From Heptranchias perlo (lineage: Eukaryota): a DNA stretch of 64,000 bases. Location: NCBI RefSeq assembly GCF_035084215.1, contig NC_090338.1, forward strand, positions 15,438,001-15,502,000, read 5' to 3'. A program made the position numbers and the translations under genes. Numbering within the stretch: the first letter of the stretch is position 1; every line of letters begins with the position of its first letter. Under the pieces are notes generated by a model, which had not been told where the DNA came from, did not search any database, and was given only the letters and a program-made list of their open reading frames with translations. This document shows positions 11,333 through 62,699 of this stretch, piece after piece.

Positions 11333-11376
11333 AGTATCTGAAGATTGTTGATTGCCTTGTGTACCATGTCTGGACC
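11333..11376 (-). CDS. Cytoplasmic exon 4 (GSRHGTQGNQQSSDT)
   Basis: 44 nt, phase 1 to phase 0, AACAG acceptor, GTAAGT donor. It supplies exactly the phase change the last exon needs. Confidence 0.7.
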
Positions 11377-20226: not shown

Positions 20227-20325
20227 CTTGCATTTGCTGTATTTCATTAGCATTTGAATAAAGCTGAGATGCATCTTCTATATTTTCCCTTGGCTGCAGA
20301 GGTTTCTGTCTTTGATTTTCCAAAC
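20227..20325 (-). CDS. Cytoplasmic exon 1 (GLENQRQKPLQPRENIEDASQLYSNANEIQQMQ; YxN motif)
   Basis: 99 nt open, phase 1-1, AACAG acceptor, G|GTAACA donor. Confidence 0.7.
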
Positions 20326-21880: not shown

Positions 21881-22130
21881 CATTTTTGACCAATTGCATA
21901 GCCTAGTGCAGAACTTCCATCATTCCAGCAATTCAGGAACCATTGCCGTCCGAGACTGTTTGACACATCGAAACACAAACACATCTATTTCTCTAATCCT
22001 AGTGGATTATATAATTTATTTTTAAACAAAGATATAATTGTCATTCCTAATTTTTGGAATCATGTGCCACATTCACATTTTATTACATGTATGAAACCTG
22101 AAATTTGTTGCAGCAATTTACAAATCTTAC

Positions 22131-22458
22131 CTGCTGCCTTGAACTTTCTTAGACACAGCACCACTGCCAGGATAATGATGAGGAGAAGAGCCAGACTCCC
22201 AAAAATAACTGTAAACAATTTTACAACACCAAGTTATAGTCCAGCAATTTTATTTTAAATTCACAAGCTTTCGGAGATTTTCTCCTTCCTCATTTACCTG
22301 AGGAAGGAGAAAATCTCCGAAAGCTTGTGAATTTAAAATAAAATTGCTGGACTATAACTTGGTGTTGTAAAATTGTTTACAATTGTCAACCCCAGTCCAT
22401 CACCGGCATCTCCACATCCCAAAAATAACAACATTGGTATGTTTAAAAGTGTAATCAT
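22131..22458 (-). pseudogene. Transmembrane exon (NDYTFKHTNVVIFGSLALLLIIILAVVLCLRKFKAA once the insertion is removed), interrupted by a Penelope-derived insertion
   Basis: Removing 22210-22429 (insert plus one TSD copy) restores a 108-nt phase 1-1 exon. Acceptor CTTCTGACAG, donor G|GTAAGA. Confidence 0.85.
22210..22416 (+). mobile_element. Penelope 3'-end insertion forming a perfect 83-bp inverted repeat, 13-bp TSD
   Basis: Arms at 22210-22292 and 22299-22381, loop TTTACC. TSD TCCCAAAAATAAC at 22197-22209 and 22417-22429. 22291-22416 matches 62389-62514 with one mismatch. Confidence 0.9.
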
Positions 22459-22807
22459 CTGTCAGAAGAAGAAGCATAGATTTCACATTTAGTTTATAGG
22501 TTAATGTAACTTTTTTTAAGCTCCCCTAATGACCCATTAAAAAAACTACTGTCTGATTTACCACTAAGCCGTACAGACCAGAGGGTCTTAGGTTTAATTC
22601 CTGATCCAAGTTAACTGACTTCACTCAGGAATGTAGGAGTGCTACAATTATCCTCAGGACCCTTCAGTTAGGGACAGCGAAAAAAAAAATCACACAGGGT
22701 TCTAGTTCCTGGTTCCAATCCAAAGATTCCTTCTGTAAAGGAGATGTGTGCAAATTACTGTTAAGAAAAGGATGCGATTCAGCTGTGATGCTTCCACTGT
22801 AAAATAT

Positions 22808-23265
22808 ACATAGAAAACAGGAACAAGAGTCGGCCATTCAGGCCTTCAGGCCTGCTCTGCCATTCAAAATGATAATGGCTGATTGTCTAATTCAGTACCC
22901 TGTTTCCCCATATCCCTTGATCCCTTTAGCATTAAGAAATATATCTGTCTCCTTCTTGAATACATCTAATGACTTGGCCTCCACTGCCTTCTATGGTAGA
23001 GAATTCCACAGGTTCACCACCCTCTGAGTGAAGAAATTTCTCCTCATCTTGGTTCTAAATGGCATACCCCGTATCCTGAGACTGTGACCTCGGGTTCTGG
23101 ACTCCCCAGCCATCGGGAACATCCTCCCTGCATCTAGTCTGTCTAGTCCTGTTAGAATTTTATAAGTTTCGATGAGATCACCTCTCATTCTTCTAAACTC
23201 GAGTGAATATAGGCCTAGTCGACCCAATCTCTCCTCATACATCAGTCCTGCCATTCCAGGAATAG
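22808..23265 (-). mobile_element. CR1 LINE 3' end
   Basis: YEERLGRLGLYSLEFRRMRGDLIETYKIL...FFTQRVVNLWNSLP. Confidence 0.85.
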
Positions 23266-23332
23266 GTCAATGATACTCATTGTCTAGGTTAATACATGAA
23301 TAATGTCTATTTGAATGAGAACTGCATTCATT

Positions 23333-23453
23333 GGGGTAGATCTTGTCTTTGTGCGATAGTGTAAAATGGATGGAAATAAAAATGGGGAGAGATGTAAAAT
23401 GGGCTGCCGACTATCACCCATTTTACACAATTACACAAAGTCAAGATCTACCC
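23333..23453. mobile_element. Short palindromic MITE (related copy at about 49020-49154)
   Basis: GGGTAGATCTTG.CTTTG...TGTAAAATGG ... CCATTTTACA...CAAAGTCAAGATCTACCC. Confidence 0.65.
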
Positions 23454-23664
23454 GAACACGGGAGGAGAAGAGGAAAGAGGAGAAAATTGGCAGAGAATTA
23501 GGAAAGAAAATTCGTACAGTACCTACATGGCCATAATATTTAGCAAGAATGAATCCTTGATAATGAAACGTAAGTAATGGCACCACAATGCATATTAGAG
23601 CAGCAAGACACCATCATGGAATGAGTTGGTGACCATGATGTGCCACAAACCAAATATCCAACCT

Positions 23665-25413
23665 TAGTCTACGCATGGAGGCAGAGGTCTTGGCTGAGGT
23701 ACTAAATGAGTACTTTGCATCTGTCTTTACCAAGGAAGAAGATGCTGCCAAAGTCACAGTAAAACAGGAGGTAGCTGAGATACTGGATGGCGTAAAACTT
23801 AATAAAGAGGAGGTATTAGAAAGGCTGGCTGAGCTTAAAGTAGATAAGTCACCCGGTCCGGATGGGATGCATCCTAGGTTGCTGAGGGAAGCAAGGGTAG
23901 AAATTGTGGAGGTGCTGGCCACAATCTTCCAAACATCCACAGATACGGGGGTGGTGCCAGAGGACTGGAGAATTTCAAATATTACACCCTTGTTCAAAAA
24001 AGGGTTTAAGGATAAACCCGGCAACTACAGGCCAGTCAGTTTAACCTCGGTGGTGGGGAAGCTTTTAGAAACGATAATCCGGGTCAAAATTAATAGTCAC
24101 TTGGACAAGTGTGGATTAATAAAGGAAAGCCAGCATTTGTTAAATGCAAATTGTGTTTAACTAACTTGATTCAGTTTTTTGATGAGGTAACAGAGCGGGT
24201 TGATAAGGGCAATGCGGTTGATGTAGAGCATATGGACTTTCAAAAGGCGTCTGATAAAGTGCCACATAATAGGCTTGAAAGTAAAATTGAAGCCCATGGA
24301 ATAAAAGGGGCATTGGCAGCATGGATACGAGATTGGCTTAGTGACAAGAAACAGAGAGTAGTGGTGAATGGTTGTTTTTCGGACTGAGGGAAGGTATACA
24401 GTGGTGTTCCCCAGGGGTCGGTACTAGGACCACTGCTTTTTTTGATATATATTAATATCTTGGACTTGGTTGTACAGGGCACAATTTCAAACTTTGCAGA
24501 TGACACAAAACTTGGAAGTGTAGTGAACAGTGAGGAGGATAGTAATAGACTTCAAGAGGACACAGACAGGCTGGTGGAATGGGGGGGTCTCATGGATGCA
24601 GTTTAATGCAGAGAAGTGCGAAGTGATACATTTTGGCAGGAAGAACGAGGCAGCGCAATATAAATTAAATGATACAATTCTAAAGGGGGTGCAGGAACAG
24701 AGAGACCTGGAGGTATATGTGCATAAATCTTTGATGGTGACAGGACAGGTTGAGAGAGCGGTTAAAAAGGCATATGGTATCTTGGGCTTTATAAATAGAG
24801 GCATAGAGCACAAAAGTAAGGATGTTATTTTGAACCTTTATATAACATTGGTTTGGCCACAACTGGAGAATTGTGTCCAATTCTCGGCACTGCACTTTAG
24901 GAAGGGTGTGAAGGTCCTGGAGAGTGTGAAGAAAAGATTTACTGGAATGGTTCCAGGGATGAGGGACTTCAGTTATGTGGATAAACTGGAGAAGCTAGGT
25001 TTGTTCTCCTTAGAAAAGAGAATGTCGAGAGGAGATTTGATAGAAGTGTTCAAAATCATGAAGGGTTTAGATAAAGTAAATATATAGAAACTGTTCCCAT
25101 TGGCAGAAGGGTCAAGAACCTGAGGACACGAATTTATGGTGATTGGCAAAAGCACCAATGGCGATGTGAGGAAAAATGTTTTTATGCAGCGAGTAGTTAT
25201 GGTCTGGAATGCGCTGCCTGAAAGGATGGTGGAAGCAGATTCAATTGTGGTTTTCAAAAAGGAATTGGATAAATACTTGACGGGAAAAAATTTGCAGGTC
25301 TACAGGTAAAGGGCGGGGCAATGGGACTAACTGGATTGCTCTTACAAAGAGCTGGCACGAGCTCGATGGGTCAAATGGCCTCCTTCAATGCTGTAACCAT
25401 TCTATGATTCTAT
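23665..25413 (+). mobile_element. CR1 LINE (RT domain to 3' end), decayed
   Basis: KSPGPDGMHPRLLRE, NYRPVSLTSVVGK, GVPQGSVLGP, FADD; TTCTATGA-type tail. Confidence 0.9.
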
Positions 25414-27143
25414 GGGGGTTAAATTGAATAAGGCCTGAATCCGGGAGCGGGCACTGGGGTCTGCGATTAACCCACACCCGTTGGTTCCGACGCAGGCAGC
25501 ATGAGACATTCGTGCTGCCTGGCCACTTACCTCTTCGAAGAGCAGCAATCTGGCCTTGCACCAGGTTCGCACTTCTCACCAGCAGTGGGGGCCCAAATAT
25601 CACATGATTTGTTCGCACCTCTTAAGGGTTGTCAGCACCTCTTAAAGGCAGCCTGCACCTCTTATTTGCAAAAAAAAGATATGGGTCCGCACGGAGTTTT
25701 TTTAAATTCGTTCATGGGACGTGGGCATCGCACACGTTAAACATGGATTTGGGTCCCATCCCTATTTACAAACTGAGAGTTACGTTAAAATATGGAATAA
25801 AGGTTGCGCACTACTAAATCCCACATCCTCCAATCTGCACACCAGACCTCACCAATCTGCCGATCTGAGTTTGTACCAGGCCTGCGATAGTGCGTGCACC
25901 AAGGTTCTCTGCTGATGCACTAAAGGCCCTGTTGCAAGAAGTGGACAAAAGGAGGGGCATCCTATATCCACGGGAGGTGGGGGGGGGGGGGAGAGCGGCA
26001 AGAGGCCCTCCAGACATATGCTCAAGAGACAGTGGGAGATTAAATCAATGCCAGGCGCACAGCACCACGATCTTGGAGGCAGTGCAGGAAGAAGTTCAAT
26101 GCTTTGACACGAGTGGTCAAGGTGAGTGAGGCCAACTGTCAAGTGGCATCTCCTACCATCTGCACCACTAGCCGCATCCACTGCTTAATGCTCTACATCC
26201 CCCATCACCCACCTATGAACAAAGTATTTCCATCAGTACTCAATTCTTCCAATCAGAAGCTTACTTTTACCCTCACACATTACCACTGTGGCAAACTGCA
26301 CACCCACAACACACAGGTCACACACACTAGCAGCTATTCAACATGACAGGCACATCACCCAGACATCCTGCAGGACACTCATCGACACACCTCTCGCTTT
26401 CTTGCAGGAGAACATGGTGCATAACAGGAGGCAGCAAGTGGCTGTGGCATTTAGCCCTTCGAGCCTGTTCTGCTATTCATTGAGATCATGGTTGATCTGT
26501 GATCTAACTCCACATACCCGCCTTAGCCCCATATCCCATAATACCCTTGGTTCACAGAAATCTATCAATCTCAGATTTGAAATTCACAATTGAGCTAGCA
26601 TCAACTGCTGTTTGCAGAAGAGCGTTCCAAACTTCTGCCACCCTTTGCATATAGAAATGTTTCCTAACTTCACTCCTGCAAGTCCTGGCTCTAAATGTTA
26701 GGCTATGCCCCCTCGTCCTAGTATTCAAGTATAGGAGACCTCCAAGAACAGGTACAAATGCATCAGCAGCCAAAAGCAATAATCCATCAACTAACGTGTA
26801 AATCCTGTATGGTTCCTTTAAATAGCGCTGGTGGGGGATCCTCCAGGCCGTCTAAGACATGTTCAGGTGTTCGTGTTTAAGACAATGTGTTGAGTGGAGT
26901 GTTAAGTGCCAAAAAGATGACCATCACTTTAAATCAGCGTTGCACAGTGACCTAACGCATATTCTCCCTACTTTACATGCTGCCGGCATTCGTTATCTAC
27001 GTGTGCCCGAAATCCGTAACCAAGATGGCGTCCGGCGCACGTAATGCTAGAAGCGTGCGCACGCATCCCGGACGTCATTTTGGAACTTCGGGAGGCCGTG
27101 TAGCGCCGAAATAACGGGCGCTACATGGCCGAATTTCTAGCCC
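25414..27143 (-). mobile_element. Non-autonomous Harbinger-derived composite element (same family as 6712-8365)
   Basis: Ends GGGGGTTAAATTG ... GAATTTCTAGCCCC, Myb/SANT remnant RAPRFSADALKALLQEV, CR1 tail at about 26455-26722. Confidence 0.75.
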
Positions 27144-28143
27144 CCAGATTCTCTGATTCAGTCAAGGTTTCAGAAGGAGGTCGGAAAAGTGTGGATGAGC
27201 GTTCCCCTGGGAGGGAGAAAAAAATAGTGACAACAACTCACCTCATACTTTTCTCATGCACCTCCCTGTGGCAGGTTAGAGAGTAACTTTAGCAAAGACC
27301 TGGAAATAGGCCACCTGTCCACTCAGGTAGGAAATGGTGCAAAAGACTTGATACCAAAAGAAAAAGTGATAGATTGTGGTATTGGAAATACAGACTACAA
27401 AAATTATATTGTTCGAGATTACTCATTCCAAGTAACTGTGCCCGTGTGATGAATGTTTTGATAACTGATTTTGCAACTAACTACAAAATTTGGGAATTTT
27501 TATTCCTGACTTTGATCGCACGACAAGAACGTAAAGAAATTGCAGAAGGCTTTTTAACCAGCATAATAGCAGAATATGTGATACAAAAGAAGGCCATTTA
27601 ACTCATTAAGCTCACTTCTACCAGACAGCATGAACAATTTTCCTAATCATGGACTCTGTCCTAAACATTTAAGGGGTGATTTTGTGTTTTGCACCTGAAT
27701 AGCACTGCATCTGAATTTTCTGTTTGGTTTTTCAGGTGGTTGGTCCTGAAGTTAGTTGAACAATATAAATTGCATGCAACTAGGTGTCGGAGTCCTGTGC
27801 CCTCAGATTCCCTATTCTGTTGATGGGTGCAATTCGGAGGCAAATTTACTCCGAAACAAGAAACCTGGAGCTATAGTTTCCAGAGCTATAAAGTTAAATT
27901 TCCAAGAGTAAATGGCAAGCAAGTTATTTCTGCTCCCTTCCCAATCCCATTTCACATGGACCTGGGACAGTAAGTCGGCCAGGCAGTCATTCTATAATTC
28001 CTAACCAATCATTCTACGGCCAATCATTCCCCGGCCAATCATTCTCTGGCCAATCACCGCCACTTCCTGGATTTTCTGCTAGAAGTGACACTGGTCAAGT
28101 GTGGGTCGTATTCAAATGAGTTGCAGGGACAGAGTGACATCAT

Positions 28144-30183
28144 GGGCCCGATTTCACCAGGGGTGCGGGTTCTTGGCGGGTGGGCCAGCGGGCGCGTTTT
28201 CAAAATTAGTGGGTTGCCCGCACGATCGTAGCAGGCAACACACTAATTGGGTTCACTTACCTGCTCCTCTGGGTTCCCCGCTGCTGATCTGCGCGTCGGG
28301 CGGTCTGCACATGCGCAGTAAGATCTGTCAGCTGGAGGAGCTCTATTTAAAGGGGCAGTCCTCCACTGACAGATGCTGCCACAAACAGCAAAAATTACAG
28401 CATGGAGCAGCCCAGGGGGAAGGCTGCTCCCAGTTTAATGATGCCTCACCCCAGGTATCATTAGATGGGGTGAGGAGGAGGGGGAGGATAGAGATCTTCC
28501 ACCCGGCGGGCGGGAGGAAGCGGCCTGCCTCTGCCACCAAGAAGGCCTGGCTCAAGGTGGCAGAGGAGGTCACCAGCACCACCAACATATCGCCCACCTG
28601 CATACAGTGCAGGAGGCACTCCATTGACCTCAGTAGGTCAGCCACAGTGAGAACACGTAGTCTTTCCCCTACACTCCATCTGCCACAACACTGCCCCCAC
28701 CCTACATCTCCTTCGGCACTGCCAACACTACTCTGTCACATCACCCCTCATACCCATTCAAACCTCATCCTCATCTTACCTGCACCTACTCACCTCGCCA
28801 GTACTCACCCCGCCACTACCACGCAACCCAATCCTCATACAATCTCATGGCTCTATCCCATACTCACCCTCTCGTGCATCTCTCTCACGGCCAGCCTCAC
28901 TCAACCTGCCACCACCTCTGCTGCAGCCACAGGGCATGCATCACATATGTGCAGTAGGCAGCGTAAGGCAAACGTGTCGTGAGCATGAAGGGGATGCACA
29001 AGGGTGTTTGAGGGTTTGTCATGGTTCTTACTTCTATTGAATTAAAGAACAACTCACATCACACATTATATTGGCACCACTACTGCCATGTCTTCGCGAA
29101 GCCTGTCCGGTTTGTGCAATAATGCCCGCTCCTGGGTATCCCTATGAGGACCCACCACTGATGACATCCAGTGTGTCACTGCAGAGTGGGTGTAGGTGTA
29201 TTTGCAGGGCTCTTCTGCGCAGACGACTGAGAGACATCGGGGATGTCCCCGGTTGCAGCCTGGAAGGCTGTGGAGCAGAAGTTCGGGAGGGCAGTGGTGA
29301 CTTTGACAGCGACAGGTAGGAAGATGGTGCACGGGCCAGCCAGGAGCAGTTCGGCATGAAAGAGGCTGCAGATGTCCACGGCTACATGTCGACTGACTCT
29401 GAGCCTCCGTGTGCACTGCTGCTCAGAGAGGTCCAGAAGGCTGAGCCTTGGTCTGTGGAACGTGTGGCGAGGGTAGTGCCCTCTGCGACGCATCTCTCTC
29501 TGCAGTAGCCCTCCCTCCTGCTGTACAGGTGGATGTGTCACAGCACTCTGTTGTGGAGCTCCACGTGTCAGAGGTGGACGGCGTGGATGGAGAGGCTGGT
29601 GAGGCTGGTGATGCTGTTCGCCCTCCGAGGAGGTCATGACTGCAGCTACGGCGGCCCCCATCCGCAAGATGTACATCTGAGGGGGTCCGCAAGGTAGGTA
29701 CATGTCTCAGGACCCCGGGGTAAGTGTGCAGGTTGGTGATTTCGAGCATCAGGAGGAGGGTGGTGGAGGCCAAACTTTGTCCCAAGTGACAGAGCGGCCT
29801 CCTGCAATGGCTGAGGGTCTCCCCACCCCACCTGTCAAATGGACCTTTGCAGCTGCCACAGGCTGACAGCTGCAACACGTCCATTTCAACTGGGAGTGTG
29901 TGAAACAGTCCCACGTTTATCCAAAATCACACACAGTCCCTTAATCAGGTCAGTTAATGACCTGAACAAGCAAAGTAAATACTCTCAAGTGGCATCCCGC
30001 TGGCTTTAATTGCCTGCGGGATTCCCACCAGTGGGGGCTGCGCGCGCACGCCGGCGCGTCATTGGGGAACCCGGAAGTGGGCGGGGATCGAGGCGTGATC
30101 CGGTCCCGCACCTGGATTTCGGGATTTTCGGGGGCCCCCCCCCGCCGAGAACGCATCTGGTAGCGGGTGCTAAAATCGGGCCC
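28144..30183. mobile_element. Internally deleted Harbinger element, 2040 bp
   Basis: TIR GGGCCCGATTT/AAATCGGGCCC, TSD CAT. Retains the 5' ends of the Myb/SANT (+) and transposase (-) genes. Confidence 0.85.
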
Positions 30184-30502
30184 CATGTGACATATTTTCT
30201 CACATCTAGTCTGATTACAATGGGCAGGAGGGGATTTAACATTTAAAATGCTCCTTACAGGAGTGTAATGGACCACAAATATTGTTTAAAAATTTACTGC
30301 TCTTCAGCTCCTCTCTATTGCTTTGAGCTGTATAGTTTGACTTTTGATGTTAAACTGTTATATGTGAACACCTATGACTTTGAACTCTTAATAACGTTGT
30401 GTGCAACAGGATATGAAAAATAAGAGGTTATCATAATAAAAGAGCAATAAATGGGAAGAACTTTCTATGGAGGTTACTAAGAGCAAAATCTGAGACACTT
30501 AC

Positions 30503-30772
30503 TGTTAACCTTCAGATAATATGGAATTGAAACCTTGGGCGAGTTTTGATGAAACAAAACACATGTCCAGTTCCTTCTGTCTCGATGGGCTTTCTGAATA
30601 ATCAGCTGTAAACATTTCTGTTCCTGCTTCTGTTCCTTAAAAGTTTTCTCTTCAACAGTTTTGCCATCATTATTGATCCAAACAAGCCTAATTGATTCAG
30701 TGACATCCGAGACAGAACAGGTCAGGGTAACGGTGTCTCCCTCAGTCACTGTATCAGATGGTTCAGCTCTGA
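30503..30772 (-). CDS. Ig domain 8 exon (C2-like, W-x-C; paralog of D4)
   Basis: VTLTC..RLVW..RNWTC, 270 nt, acceptor TTACACAG, donor A|GTAAGT. Confidence 0.9.
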
Positions 30773-30850
30773 CTGTGTAAACAAGGAAATCATTTAGATT
30801 TTAAACAATGACTATATTATTAAAAACAGCTGCAACATTCTGTCTCCTAC

Positions 30851-31189
30851 CTTTAACTGTGATTAGTTTAATGGTCACATATGGATATGGCCCCAGAGAA
30901 CATGTGTAAACCCCGGCATCTTCGAACAGTACAGGGACAATCCTCACAATGAAGTACTTGCGATTAAAATTTGCCATTGTGGGTTCCAGTCGAGTCCCAA
31001 AGTAGGTCCTGTTTAGTTTGATAGGCTTAGAGCTGAAAGTAGAAGCTATTTCTTCCTCTTGATTCTGAAAATGATGTGACCTCCAGGTCCATTTAGTTTT
31101 AGTGTACTCAGATTGAGCTTCACAAATCAGGTAGAGTTCACTGTGATCTGTGCCTGACCGATAAAGTGTGTAACTCTTATTATTTAAAT
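30851..31189 (-). CDS. Ig domain 7 exon (V-set; paralog of D3)
   Basis: Open 339 nt, absent from the ORF track: DLNNKSYTLYRSGTDHSELYLICEAQSEYTKTKWTW...FEDAGVYTCSLGPYPYVTIKLITVK. Acceptor CTATTGCAG, donor G|GTAGGA. Confidence 0.9.
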
Positions 31190-31578
31190 CTGCAATAGAG
31201 AGACAGGAAACAAGGTGTTAGAGTTTAACTACTGAGATACAGATGTTCTGAATTTCCACAGGGCCAAACAGAGTCTTCCTGGCATAAGTCAGCTGAGATT
31301 GCAGCATTGGGACAGGAAAATCGGCTGGGGATACATTGGCTGCCAGCCCAGTCTGCCCATTGTTTAAAGGCCTGGTTGTGGTTCACAGTCCATCTGCCCC
31401 AAACATGGCCCCCAATATCAGAGAGAGTTAGAGGCAAAAAGCCTGCAAACTGTGTAGCAAGAGCTATGTGGAAGATAGTGGGACTGGCAGCAAGTGGAAG
31501 ATCTCTTACTTCAGGACACTGTTACAATGTTGCAAGACAATGGCCAGAATCTGTGCCGAGCGGCGTGACAGCGATCGC

Positions 31579-38423: not shown

Positions 38424-38687
38424 CCTGATTCACATCAACATTTGTGTTTCCAGTGAGAACAATGGAGTCATTTTCCTGCACTTCCCACGTATACAAATTC
38501 TGATTTTTTGTACTGACTGTCAGATAGACTGTGTTATTCAGATGGATCTCATCAGTGTTGTTCCTCCTGTTCTGCTGAGATGAGTCTCTTTGTTTCCAGT
38601 GAAGACTGACTGTATCTGAGAGTCTGGAGATGGTACATCTGAGGGTGATGTCGCTGCCCATTACAGGCCTCTGTGAATCCGTCTCAA
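38424..38687 (-). CDS. Ig domain 6 exon (C2-like; paralog of D2; second Cys replaced by Trp)
   Basis: ITLRC..SLHW..LYTW, 264 nt, acceptor TTTTTTTACAG, donor G|GTAAGT. Confidence 0.9.
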
Positions 38688-54789: not shown

Positions 54790-55102
54790 CTTTGATTCCA
54801 AATATTTCGTACTGTTTCAGGATTTTATTACTCGGCTGTGTCTCAGTCAAGATGAACAATCCCGCAAGTTCAAATGTGGGTTTTCTAATTCTCAGATTAA
54901 GGGTACCAGGGTCCCGCTGCACCTCCGGATACAATTTCCTAAAGTGATCGTTCCATTCTACGCTCCCCCAGCCCCAATTATATTTCTGAATAACCTGAGT
55001 GTGGTTTCCATTTCCAGACAACACGACCATTTCCAGGATTGTCTGGTCCTTTTAATGAAACTTTATCTCCCTTATCCAAAAAATAAATAAGATTTGGGTT
55101 TC
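54790..55102 (-). pseudogene. Ig domain 1 exon (V-like, no cysteines), frameshifted
   Basis: GNPNLIYFLDKGDKVSLKGPDNPGNGRVVWKWKPHSG, then a frame change to ...GTLNLRIRKPTFELAGLFILTETQPSNKILKQYEIFGIK. Length is 313 nt (316 with the alternative NAG acceptor), not a multiple of 3. Paralog of 41438-41782. Donor G|GTGAGT. Confidence 0.85.
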
Positions 55103-55554: not shown

Positions 55555-58500
55555 GCACAGTAAGTTGTTGCTTCTCCTGGACCACCGGTGACCAGGCTAC
55601 CCACAGGAGTAGAAGGCGAGAGAGAGGCAGAGGAAAATGTCCCGACTCCAGAAAAGCATGCAGAATCTGCTCCTGCTGCAGTCGATGGGGATCGATGTCA
55701 GGGAGGAACTCAGAGAGGTAAAGGACCAGCAAGCTTCGCTCTTTGCCTCCGAGGCCTCCAAGATCATCTTCCGGTCCAGAGTCCGCTCTGTGGATCAGGA
55801 CGAGACTTGCTCGCGTTTCTTCTTCCAAAAAGTGCACAGAGCTCTGTAATCAGCAGCCTGAAGGAAGTCGACGGCTCGGTCACGTCCTCGCAGCCCGACA
55901 TACTGAGGATCTGCAAATCCTTTTATGCTGGACTGTACTACGGAAAGCCCACAGACAGCGCGGCCTCCCAGTCCTTCTTGTCGTCTATCACGGAGGTTCT
56001 AGACGACAGCAAGCGGGAGGATCTGGATCACCCGCTAACTCTGGACGAACTGACAAAGGCCATCCGTTCCTTTGAGAAGAGTAAGACACCCGGAAGCGAC
56101 GGCTTACCAGTGGAGTTTTACTCGGCTCTGTGGGACTGGTTAGGCCCAGACCTGCTGGAAGTGTACGGGAGTATGCTTCGGGCAGGCAGCATGTCAGACT
56201 CCATGAGGAAAGGCATCAACACCCTCATCTACAAGCAGAAGGGGGAGGGGGAAGAAATCAAAAATTGTCGACCCATCTCACTACTTAACGTGGACTACAA
56301 AATTCTGTCCAAGGTCATCGCCAATCGGGTCAAGTCAGCCCTGGAGGTGGTGATCCACCCCGATCAGACCTGCGCTGTACCCGGCAGGAAGATCTCTGAT
56401 AGCCTGGCGCTACTCAGGGATACGATCGCCTACGTATAGGACAGGGGGGGTGAACACCTGCCTCATCAGCCTGGACCAGGAGAAGGCCTTTGACAGAATA
56501 TCCCACGCGTACATGATGGACGTGCTCTCTAAAATGAGGTTTGGGGAGGGAATCCGCAATTGGATCCAACTGCTCAACACAGACATCAGTAGCGCAGTTT
56601 CAATCAACGGGTGGGAATCAGAAAGCTTTCTGATCAAATCTGGAGTCAGGCAGGGTTGTCTTCTCTCCTCCGTCTTGTTCATGTGTTGCATCGAACCCTT
56701 TGCTGAGTCCATCAGGACGGTTGCGGACATAAGAGGGGTGATGATCCCAGGCAGCGGAGTCACTCAGGTCAAGGCCTCCCTGTACATGGACGACATCGCC
56801 GTCTTTTGCTCAATTCAGCTGTCGATCCGCAGATTGGTGAGCATCTGCGACCAGTTCGAACTGGCCTCGGGGGCCAGGGTAAATCGTGGCAAGAGTGAGG
56901 CCATGTTCTTTGGGAACTGGACCGACCGATCCTTTGTCCCCTTCACCGTCAGGCCAGATTACCTGAAGGTGCTGGGGATCTACTTTGGGGGGGCCGGGGC
57001 GTGCACCAAAAACTGGGAGGAGCGGATTGCCAAGGTGAAGCAGAAACTGGGACTGTGGGATTGACGATCCCTCTCGATTGTGGGCAAGAACCTGGTCATC
57101 AGGTGCGAGGTACTTTCCGTGTTGCTGTACGTGGCGCAGGTCTGGCCCATACCGTGCTCCTGCGCCGCGACAGTCACCCAAGCCATCTTCCACTTTATCT
57201 GGAGATCAAAAATGGACCATGTCCGCAGGGACACGATGTACAAATCTCCAGAGAAAGGAGGGAAATACGTGCCCAACGTGGCTCTCATCCTGATGGCCAC
57301 CTTTGCGTGCGGCTGCATCAAGCTGTGCGTAGACCCTCAGTATGCAAACACAAAGTGCCACTATGTGCTAAGGTTCTACCTGTCCCCGGTGTTGAGAAGG
57401 ATGGGCCTGGCCACGTGTCACGGAATGTTCCATCCAGTTGGACCGTTCCGCCCCACCTGTCCTTCATGGAAACGTTTGTGCAGAAAAACACCTTTGATCA
57501 CAAGGCGATCAGCGTCACCCATCTCCTTCTGGAATGTGCCTTTGCAAAGAAGGTCTGGAGAGAGATGCAGTGGTATCTGTCCAGGTTTGTCCCGAGCAGT
57601 TCCATAACACAGGATTCTGTGCTCTATGGGCTGTTCCCAGGGACGCACTGTAGGGGGTAGTGGTGTGTGTCAGCTTCACCTCTGAATTCTGAGCGGTTCA
57701 AATCGGTCCCACTCCCTTGGTTCTAGACCTTGGACTTATTTGGGGGTTGTGACAAAAATGCAGCAGACAACTGGGTTTGGTGCAAGAAAACTGGGTTTAT
57801 TGAAGTCACAAATGAACTTATAACATTAGGATTACACTGAGATTATACAGACATACAAAAGTACACTTAGTTAAGAATGGGGAATACACGGCACAACGAG
57901 GGAAAATCACCCTACTAATCCCCTTACCCTTGTCCCACCCCCAAAACCTAACTAAATTGAACTAGGAGAGGTCAGGAATCATGATCACCAACAAGGGTTC
58001 CTTGACACTTCGAAATCCAGCTAGGTAAGCCGGTTGCAGTTTTGGGGTACGCTCTTTGTGTCCTTTGGGGCCTGCCGTCCCCACGTGGTCCTGGTCTGTG
58101 GAATCTGCGAAGGTTCTTCAGTTGGGTGGAGTTCGCTGATGCGGTAAGGCGCGGTTGTGGGTGGTCGATCTTCATGGAGAGCTGCGGTTGCGGCCTTGTT
58201 GTCTTCGGTTGAGTCAGCCATGCCATGCCCCTCGCCGTGATGTTGCCTGCGGGCCTGTGAACCTCCGGATCTCCTTCCTCCGCTTAGCTCAGCTATCTCT
58301 CCCTGCTTAAACTCTGCTTAAAACTGCTTAAAACCTGCCCCCTTCGTAACTGGTGGCCCAGTTATACTGTTTTTTGAATTTCTTATCGGAGCGCCAAATC
58401 AAGGTTAGTTCTTTGTCTGATTTAGGTGGGCTTCTTCAGGTGATTATAGTTTTTCGCCTTAACTGGTTTTGGGGTGGTTGTCTCGTTGTTTTTAATGGGC

Positions 58501-59437
58501 TTGCATAATGTTTATCGTTGCCTTCCTACCCCCGTAACTAGTCTTGAACTGAAAGCCATTGTATATGTGAAGTCTTGATGGGCTTGCATAATTGCTCCAT
58601 TGTTGCCTTCCTGCCTTAGTATCTAGTAGTGATTATTTATGCAAGGTTTTGATGAGCTTAAGTTTCATGTAAGATGAAGTCTTTCTCTGGGTTGATTGTT
58701 ATAAAGGGAAGAATGCGTATTCTGTCTCCTCTCGTTGTCTAGTTTCAGGCAACAATCCACACTGCACCCAACAAGCCCGGGCATGTCAAGTCCCAGGCCC
58801 TCATGGGCCTAACCTCCTGTCTGCGGGGTTCCACATTTAACCCAGAAGTTTGGTCCTCTGCCATAAAAGTCCAAAAGTCATATCCTCGTTGATGATATGA
58901 AAAATGTGGGAATTTTGAGAACCCTTCAGCACACCGAGATGGATATCAACTGCTGCTGAAAGACCATCAACTCGATGAAAGAAGCACTTTGGTCTGCCCG
59001 AAACTTGCTAGTCTTCCAGTGCAAGGAGCTGTCCTCGACCAAGTGTTACAGACTGGCACATTCCAAGGTCCAGGGCAGCGTGCTCAGGGACAAACTGATG
59101 CTGGGTGCGGCCGCCGCAAAGGCTCTATGGGGAAAGGCAACCATTTAGAGCCTTCCCGCCATTGTATACTGAGGGGCTGCAATTAGGGAAAAACCCCCTC
59201 GGGCAGAATGTAAAATTCAAATTGATGTAATGTACCTATAATAAATCTGTAATCAATAATCTGTTTCGAGTGTAATGCAATGAGGCATCCTCGAGTGTCA
59301 TGAACAGTAATTATGTACAATATGTTCATTGAACTGTACTTGATGTAATCTGCAAATTGTTTGAAATGTAATATGACAACTGTATTGTATGATTTGTTGC
59401 AAATTTTATGAATAAAGTATAATTTTTGAAAAAAAAT
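55555..59437 (+). mobile_element. Tx1-like (L1 clade) non-LTR retrotransposon, 5'-truncated and decayed
   Basis: KTPGSDGLPVEFY, RPISLLNVDYKILSKV, LDQEKAFDR, GVRQGC, LYMDD, HLLLEC; AATAAA followed by an A tail at 59411-59437. Confidence 0.88.
57649..58928 (-). mobile_element. Solo LTR (1280 bp) inserted in the Tx1-like element
   Basis: TG...CA ends with short inverted repeat TGTAGGG/CCCTTCA, 4-bp TSD GCAC. Removing it rejoins the Tx1 reading PGTH|TE. Confidence 0.8.
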
Positions 59438-61146: not shown

Positions 61147-61234
61147 TCTGAGTGAAAACAGACCGAAGTAGAAACACAAAGAAACTTAACATCAAACCAG
61201 CTGGTATTTTGCTGCAGAAAAATCGGAGACACAT
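61147..61234 (-). CDS. Signal-peptide exon, MCLRFFCSKIPAGLMLSFFVFLLRSVFTQ (exon starts at 61256 with 5'UTR)
   Basis: Acceptor TTTCTTACAG ends at 61257, ATG at 61234, hydrophobic core, phase-1 donor A|GTAAGT at 61146. Confidence 0.75.
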
Positions 61235-61285
61235 TTTGCAGATTCAGTCTCTTCGCCTGTAAGAAATATACATGTCAATATATAT

Positions 61286-62514
61286 GGACAGGCCCTGCGA
61301 ATACACAGGGTCTGCTCAGACGAGGAGGAACGCGATGGACACCTACAGACGCTGAAAGACGCCCTAGTAAGAACGGGATATGACGCTCGACTCATCGATC
61401 GACAGTTCCGACGGGCCACAGCAAAAAATCGCATAGACCTCCTCAGGAGACTAACACGGGACGCAACCAACAGAGTACCCTTTGTCGTCCAGTACTTCCC
61501 CGGAGCGGAGAAACTACGCCATGTTCTCCGCAGCCTTCAACATGTCATCAATGAGGACAAACACCTCGCTATGGCCATCCCCACACCTCCACTACTCGCC
61601 TTTAAACAGCCACCCAACCTCAAACAGACCATCGTTCGCAGCAAACTACCTAGCTTTCAAGAGAACAGCGTCCACGACGCCACACAACCCTGCCACGGTA
61701 ACCTCTGCAAGACATGCCAGATCATCGACACAGATACCACCATCACACGAGATGACACCACCCACCAGGTGCATGGTTCATACTCCTGTGACTCAGCCAA
61801 CGTTGTCTACCTCATACGTTGCAGGAAAGGATGCCCCAGAGCATGGTACATTGGCGAGACCATGCAGACGCTGCGACAACGGATGAACGGACACCGCGCA
61901 ACAATCGCCAAACAGGAGGGTTCCCTCCCAGTCGGGGAACACTTCAGCAGTCATGGACATTCATCCACCGACCTTCGGGTAAGCGTACTCCAAGGCGGCC
62001 TTCGAGACACACGACAACGCAAAATCGTCGAGCAGAAATTGATAGCCAAGTTCCGCACCCATGAGGACGGCCTCAACCGGGATCTTGGGTTCATGTCACG
62101 CTACACGTTACCCCACCAGCGAACAAATGTTATCTGTTTTTAATATAATGGGTCATTTGCTGGCTCTCTCTGCCTTCCGGATGTTTCTGCCTCTCTCTTT
62201 TTTTTTTCTCTGTTTTTTTTCCCTGTTTGTTTTTTTATTGAATGTGTATTCGGAGGTTCTGCAGGTAACACCTCTCTGTCTGAACACGGTGATTGCCTTG
62301 GCAACGGGCAGTTGCAGGGGCAGTCTGTAAACACCATGTATTATTGTTCAATATGTATAAATGCGTAGGCTTCAAGGAGATCTTGAAACATTTGCCTGAG
62401 GAAGGAGAAAATCTCCGAAAGCTTGTGAATTTAAAATAAAATTGCTGGACTATAACTTGGTGTTGTAAAATTGTTTACAATTGTCAACCCCAGTCCATCA
62501 CCGGCATCTCCACA
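61286..62514 (+). mobile_element. Young 5'-truncated Penelope-like element (open GIY-YIG frame, hammerhead motif, TSD)
   Basis: Uninterrupted CpG-rich frame to 62143 with VVYLIRC...WYIGETMQTLRQRMNGH. TSD TCAATATATAT at 61275-61285 and 62515-62525. Confidence 0.9.
62390..62430 (+). ncRNA. Minimal hammerhead ribozyme motif of a Penelope element (second copy at 22292-22332)
   Basis: CTGAGGA-A-GGAG-aaaat-CTCC-GAAA-GCTT with palindrome AAGCTT, and stem I ATTTGC/GTGAAT. Confidence 0.65.
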
Positions 62515-62699
62515 TCAATATATATAGTGGCTGAAAGCCGCCAGAACTAAAACTGAGGCATTTGCAAAAGACTTCTACACCATAATTTTAATTTACACAA
62601 AGTCAGATAAAACTGATCAGAAAACTTATGAATTTTATGTAACTGAGTGTATGAATTAACAGCAATTAACATTTTCTTATTCACTGCTGCACAATTTGT

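Follow-up and report, generated by a model that had tools for sequence, protein, structure and literature searches.

The stretch of DNA analysed here, referred to as the window, comprises 64,000 nucleotides of contig NC_090338.1 of Heptranchias perlo. On its minus strand lies a gene for a receptor with several immunoglobulin (Ig) domains. The exon coding for the leader (signal peptide) is found at 61147-61234, and the first Ig exon, D1, at 54790-55102. D1 is 313 nt long and carries a frameshift, with a stop at 54980. The Ig exons D2-D8 (53211-52942, 44540-44187, 44108-43839, 41782-41438, 38687-38424, 31189-30851 and 30772-30503) are all open. These are followed by the transmembrane (TM) exon, which with its insert spans 328 nt (22131-22458), and by five cytoplasmic exons (20325-20227, 17805-17728, 16620-16564, 11376-11333 and 11192-11121) that encode three ITIM-consensus motifs.

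The gene sits in a cluster at 15.29-15.97 Mb (G000:C14), where it is among five TM-bearing copies. The number of Ig exons is 4 in paralog A, 8 in C and 12 in D, and all 24 are open; elsewhere in the cluster, certain D1/D5-type and C2 exons are broken too. A search with D7 retrieved 71 proteins among 101 candidates, all labelled as shark or ray and mostly uncharacterized. Judging from their sequences, these receptors suggest a paired inhibitory/activating family with CD4/LAG-3-like ectodomains. Like the CD4/LAG-3 family (PMC10768021), they have V-C2-V-C2 repeats, each of which bears a WxC motif in its final C2 domain. In that family, according to the same source, WxC lies in strand F of both D2 and D4 and the genes are linked in the genome; the window copy has WxC in D4 and D8 and not in D2 or D6. 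The tail of LAG-3 is encoded by a single exon and that of the window copy by five. Neither the CD4 tail motif Cx(C/H) nor the LAG-3 tail motif (F/Y)xxL(D/E) occurs in any of five tails.

Receptors of the form (V-C2-V-C2)n, in which every fourth domain carries WxC, make up the elasmobranch cluster (P0001, P0007, P0048, P0052 and relatives). Some of its members have multi-ITIM tails; P0052, P0021 and P0044 have a lysine in the TM segment, and the tail of P0052 is short. In D6-type domains (38424-38687 in the window, and those of paralogs C and D), tryptophan replaces the second Ig cysteine. Since this was seen in all copies examined, it is a family trait and not a sign of decay.

The native acceptor AG of the TM exon lies at 22460-22459. 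Inside the exon sits a Penelope-like stub of 207 bp (22210-22416, plus strand), made up of an 83-nt inverted copy and then 124-126 nt of pLTR, whose sense is the plus strand and thus antisense to the receptor gene. It is flanked by two 13-nt copies of the target-site duplication (TSD), the upstream one at 22417-22429 and the downstream one at 22197-22209, both given on the minus strand and 220 nt apart by sequence comparison. The fold-back arms (22207-22292 and 22299-22384) enclose a 6-nt loop and match exactly over 83 bp, or over 86 nt with one mismatch. Beyond the exact arms, a one-sided tail of about 35 nt extends over 22382-22416 (plus strand).

The empty site, a TM exon of 108 nt, was found in 4/4 paralogous TM exons of the cluster, which are 95-97% identical; the insertion and its TSD are therefore real, and the coordinates that had been predicted for the 207-bp insert and the 13-bp duplication all hold. 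The insertion is young and, by comparison with the paralogs, private to one copy. Long palindromes can disturb assemblies (PMC8557442), and among the contigs listed none runs over the junction between insert and exon. Nevertheless, an assembly artefact is exceedingly improbable, as the TSD is exact against four empty paralogs and the same stub unit is found in 29 further places in the genome, each with flanks of its own and in most cases with a short flanking duplication.

The insert had been taken for a retroelement, and this was borne out. It matches at 125 of 126 positions both ends of a 3.08-kb tandem unit, the intact element, and equally well (125/126) the end of a 1.2-kb truncated element elsewhere in the window. 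The parent element is arranged as a pLTR-ORF-pLTR tandem, and the insert is derived from its pLTR. A 918-codon open frame was present in 3/3 loci fetched. It contains a reverse transcriptase (RT) domain (RVT_1, E=3.2e-10, above the cut-off), a CX4CXXC linker and, at the C-terminus, a GIY-YIG-type domain, of which the motif is visible and the Pfam match, on the window copy, is weak and below the cut-off (E=0.0014).

Typically, a Penelope-like element (PLE) lies next to a 5'-truncated copy of itself in inverted orientation and has a tail of 30-40 bp on one side, and a CX2-5CxxC linker upstream of GIY-YIG is the mark of Neptune/Nematis (PMC8557442). The one-sided tail has been explained by two start sites of the RT, and cleavage at ATT has been reported (PMC11167929). 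The tandem pLTRs, the RT with a GIY-YIG-type end, the CX4CXXC linker, the inverted copy, the tail of about 35 nt and the AT-rich targets of the present element resemble endonuclease-bearing (EN+) PLEs of the Neptune/Nematis type; the putative clade assignment is made by the linker motif and not by a tree. Unlike the known Neptune/Nematis layout, the shortest stub here stands alone and has entered a coding exon.

Forty full-length stub copies were scored, with 93-100% identity, and one copy elsewhere is identical. The genome holds 6433 exact copies of the element's 103-nt end and 286 exact copies of the stub's fold-back junction; controls gave 0. The thousands of identical ends indicate that the element is still active, and on the evidence of its copies the Penelope-like family is young, abundant and very active.

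Several other identities of the stub were considered. Stubs L006, L007 (G000:C1349), L015 and L019 have a flipped or lengthened loop, and the variants always occur in both arms of a copy. Such loops, together with the shared arm variants, point to repeated fold-back or arm exchange. A separate non-autonomous SINE was rejected, as arm variants are shared within a copy, loops vary and the pLTR of the intact element is matched; repeated fold-back of the intact element would be simpler, with a master hairpin as the alternative. A miRNA-type hairpin was the strongest of 47 Rfam matches to the stub at E<=10; all of these were below the gathering score and reflect only the palindrome, and no hammerhead family was among them. 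A minimal hammerhead-like motif was seen by eye at 22293-22325 on the plus strand (CUGAnGA, stem II and GAAA, as in the hammerhead consensus), and its stem II folds. A 744-codon element that emerged from a search for the GIY-YIG family has no match to the insert. It forms large, near-telomeric-looking tandem arrays (L103, G000:C4:141571001-141581000; L104, G000:C1:955001-965000), and ahead of its frame, which is of the GIY-YIG/RT kind, lies another long frame, distinct from it, that has a proline-rich repeat together with what is presumably an esterase-like motif. In the open-access literature, supplements aside, nothing was found on a Penelope palindrome or hairpin in sharks or on a transposable-element insertion in a TM exon, and for Penelope exonization only off-topic reviews appeared.

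The TM exon is not the only damaged part of this gene. In paralogs A, C and D, D1 measures 342 nt, so that 29 nt are missing here. When all exons are included, translation ends after 70 codons, within D1. The deletion creates an in-frame GT donor (CAG/GTTATT) at 54995, which is absent in the paralogs and could join a 36-codon D1 stub to D2; it would be in frame with D2 but is weak. The ATG of the leader that three paralogs have in common is ATA in the window copy, and an in-frame ATG upstream remains. A 3.8-kb insertion with LINE-like frames (55612-59435), also private to this copy, occupies the intron between leader and D1. The 1.2-kb, 5'-truncated element mentioned above (61285-62517, plus strand) is a second copy of the same Penelope-like family, in the same orientation as the stub in the TM exon. 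Its site is a run of TA at a distance of about 30 nt above the acceptor of the leader exon, and it is absent in paralogs A, C and D. The window copy is most likely a decaying paralog.

From the native acceptor, the frame reads ...VVIFGMWRCR-stop and ends ahead of the helix at a TGA at 22402-22400, just as had been predicted. The insertion also brings forth a new AG (22210-22209), composed of the terminal A of the insert and the first G of the downstream TSD copy. The hypothetical exon behind it (22131-22208, minus strand) is 78 nt long, has phase 1-1 and encodes the whole helix, IIFGSLALLLIIILAVVLCLRKFKAA; D8 ends at 30503 in phase 1. The coordinates and frame that the original prediction gave for this exon are exact, and among the 17 AGs in the exon this one alone would, as an acceptor, keep the full helix in frame. 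It was further claimed that only 10 stalk residues would be lost. Those ten residues are the whole of the conserved stalk, which would shrink from 17 to 7 residues, while the distance from the last Ig strand motif to the helix is 14-22 residues in 48 of 56 relatives with a predicted TM segment (the remaining 8 gave no match to the Ig strand motif close to the helix).

To judge from sister copies of the stub, the new AG is no more than chance, a common by-product of the arm meeting the target site, and it is likely unused. Of 29 such copies, 23 have A directly behind the arm, 5 have G and 1 has T, so that an AG arises in 5/29; these are the best matches to this locus, and the AG share may be inflated. 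A third of AGs of this kind fall in frame. The tract before the new AG is weak, with a pyrimidine share of 0.53 and a longest run of 3. Among 491 AGs of the upstream intron, 33% do as well or better, against a share of 0.71-0.88 in 10 of the 11 true acceptors scored. Since one true acceptor, that of the cytoplasmic exon at 11376, has a share of 0.47, a weak tract by itself does not exclude the use of the new AG. Another AG, at the apex of the hairpin, has a pyrimidine run of 14 nt, the longest of all the sites scored; the competing cryptic exon behind it (22131-22297, minus strand) would yield only Ser-Lys-stop.

The region 22190-22420 is predicted to fold with -153 kcal/mol. The predicted probability of being unpaired is at most 0.01 for 22245-22210 and 0.01-0.04 for 22209, such that the new acceptor is predicted to be paired throughout, from its branch region over the tract to the AG, within a stem of 86 bp; this is an equilibrium prediction, and the stem could be unwound by helicases or loosened by ADAR editing. 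The earlier suggestion that the hairpin may mask the new acceptor is in agreement with this fold, as the stem covers the new AG. The native acceptor is intact and lies outside the stem. In another system (PMC2275289), splicing is inhibited when a stem sequesters the branch point, and the exon can be skipped as a result. The two are alike in that 3' splice signals are paired; however, the system of PMC2275289 is an engineered short aptamer in human systems, whereas here the stem is natural, 86 bp long and its effect predicted. Removal of the insert and one TSD copy as an internal intron (22415 to 22195, 220 nt) was also tried as an explanation. It would be in frame and change one residue, but its donor (GAT/GTGGAG) and its acceptor ending in GAG are poor, and it was rejected.

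The public gene model offers a different view of the locus. The RefSeq model P0004 (XP_067852706.1, Heptranchias perlo) corresponds to it letter for letter, with the leader, D2-D8 and the five tail exons. This predicted model skips both D1 and the entire TM exon and makes no use of 22208. A public isoform of a paralog, P0048, skips D1 too; D1 skipping is therefore plausible, and the frameshift can be bypassed.

Contigs were taken from one DNA run and three RNA-like runs, all of at most one sample, and compared with the window over 22000-31300, a stretch that does not reach the exon at 20325; the RNA-like runs were taken as RNA by guess, backed by spliced joints with CT..AC ends. The native joint 22458/30503 occurs in 3/3 RNA runs, on a D8 contig that carries the letters of paralog D: it differs from the window at 10 letters, paralog D has 10 differences there, and the 7 that are listed all match. 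Each of the four runs also has the empty TM site, there too with the letters of paralogs. In run X5, a 137-nt D7 contig has 0 differences to the window copy at a depth of 54, the nearest paralog having 6 differences, and the depth of unique intron bins in that run is about 1. Thus, the window copy or its allele is transcribed in one of the three RNA-like runs. The joint 22208/30503 is absent among the 15 joints listed of 516, in contigs that drop rare paths. The lack of reference letters in the RNA contigs of the TM exon is uninformative, as the DNA run shows the same collapse.

These runs also bear on whether the insert is present on this haplotype alone, with the other haplotype, intact or differently broken, supplying the RNA. 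The apparent ongoing activity of the element, the perfect TSD and the origin of the four runs from at most one sample all fit such a situation, and nothing speaks directly against it, the empty-site DNA and RNA contigs carrying paralog letters that cannot be phased. It is held to be a real possibility, at somewhat less than even odds, and is compatible with the explanation preferred below.

The original prediction was that a single insertion could let the gene toggle between two outcomes, a soluble ectodomain (or NMD) and a membrane receptor without its stalk. As stated, this is not supported, given the D1 stop after 70 codons, the predicted pairing of the acceptor and the public model that skips the TM exon. 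A toggle would now require the new AG to be used meaningfully along with the skipping of D1, because the full-inclusion frame ends within D1; the product would be an 875-aa, stalk-less membrane receptor with 7 Ig domains and three ITIM motifs. The frame up to the rescue site is open only with D1 skipped and meets a stop at codon 71 with D1 included. That this particular choice of exons is open, that the new AG alone keeps the full helix in frame, that weak acceptors are in use in the family and that X5 shows transcription of the window copy or of its allele all speak for it. Weighed against these are the fully paired acceptor in the predicted fold, the stronger tract at the apex leading to Ser-Lys-stop, the intact native acceptor, the need for a second skip at D1, the shortened stalk and the public model without the new AG. 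On balance, it is very unlikely. In a bolder form, the stub would bring its own rescue acceptor, gated by the 86-bp hairpin: opening of the stem by ADAR editing or helicases would give the D1-less, stalk-less ITIM receptor and otherwise a soluble 7-Ig decoy would be made, the whole being a dsRNA-sensing splice switch. Its chances are rated just as slim.

Alternatively, the insertion may force skipping of the TM exon, and with D1 skipped as well, the gene would make a functional secreted decoy of 7 Ig domains. The skip form is in frame, is identical with P0004 and would escape NMD, which fits the signal in X5. There is also a precedent in CD274-L2A, the source of a soluble PD-L1 (PMC6877088). 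In both cases, a retroelement would alter splicing so that an Ig protein of an inhibitory pathway loses its TM domain. However, CD274-L2A is old, intronic, conserved in hominids, expressed and active, whereas the present element is young, exonic and found in one paralog, with a product that is predicted. Moreover, the element is very young, having an identical copy elsewhere, and private to the window copy; the product would be a secreted protein without D1 that drags 115 cytoplasmic residues as its tail; there is no sign of conservation, and the protein is a predicted one. A functional decoy is thus improbable, if a little less so than the use of the new AG.

The explanation preferred here, with a probability of roughly 0.7, is that a recent Penelope-like stub in the TM exon ends the membrane form of a decaying, D1-frameshifted paralog of an ITIM receptor. 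A very recent element would have left its shortest fold-back stub and a 13-bp TSD in the exon. In transcripts that use the native acceptor, 269 nt would separate the stop from the next junction below it, and by the 50-nt rule these transcripts would undergo NMD. The upstream arm would be transcribed first and the second arm would zip onto it, so that the new acceptor would not be exposed at its branch region, its tract or its AG; the AG would itself be a by-product of the arm meeting the target site. The most likely surviving in-frame mRNA would skip D1 and the whole TM exon and encode a 7-Ig protein without an anchor. Against this explanation stands the depth of 54 in X5, which is more than a gene fully silenced by NMD might give; the use of a weak acceptor elsewhere in the family and the bypassable frameshift in D1 also count against it, as do the small share of joints listed (15 of 516), a stem that could be opened in the cell and the possibility that the skips of P0004 come from the predictor keeping the frame.

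Such a history would be an ordinary step in the birth and death of an immune receptor cluster, in which the same active Penelope-like family struck one gene twice. The kind of element is already known, and the insertion event is ordinary. Should the rescue acceptor be in use, with the hairpin as its gate, stubs could create regulated switches between membrane and soluble forms at once, and with AG at the end of about one in six stubs, test cases would be plentiful. The elasmobranch multi-Ig cluster, uncharacterised and with both ITIM and TM-lysine members, may merit more attention than the insertion. By title or abstract opening, no paper on the host receptor family was found in the open-access literature (supplements aside). 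A divergent member with four Ig domains lies 11 Mb away from the cluster, at G000:C14:26.62-26.64 Mb (L100-L102), with 35-54% identity per domain.
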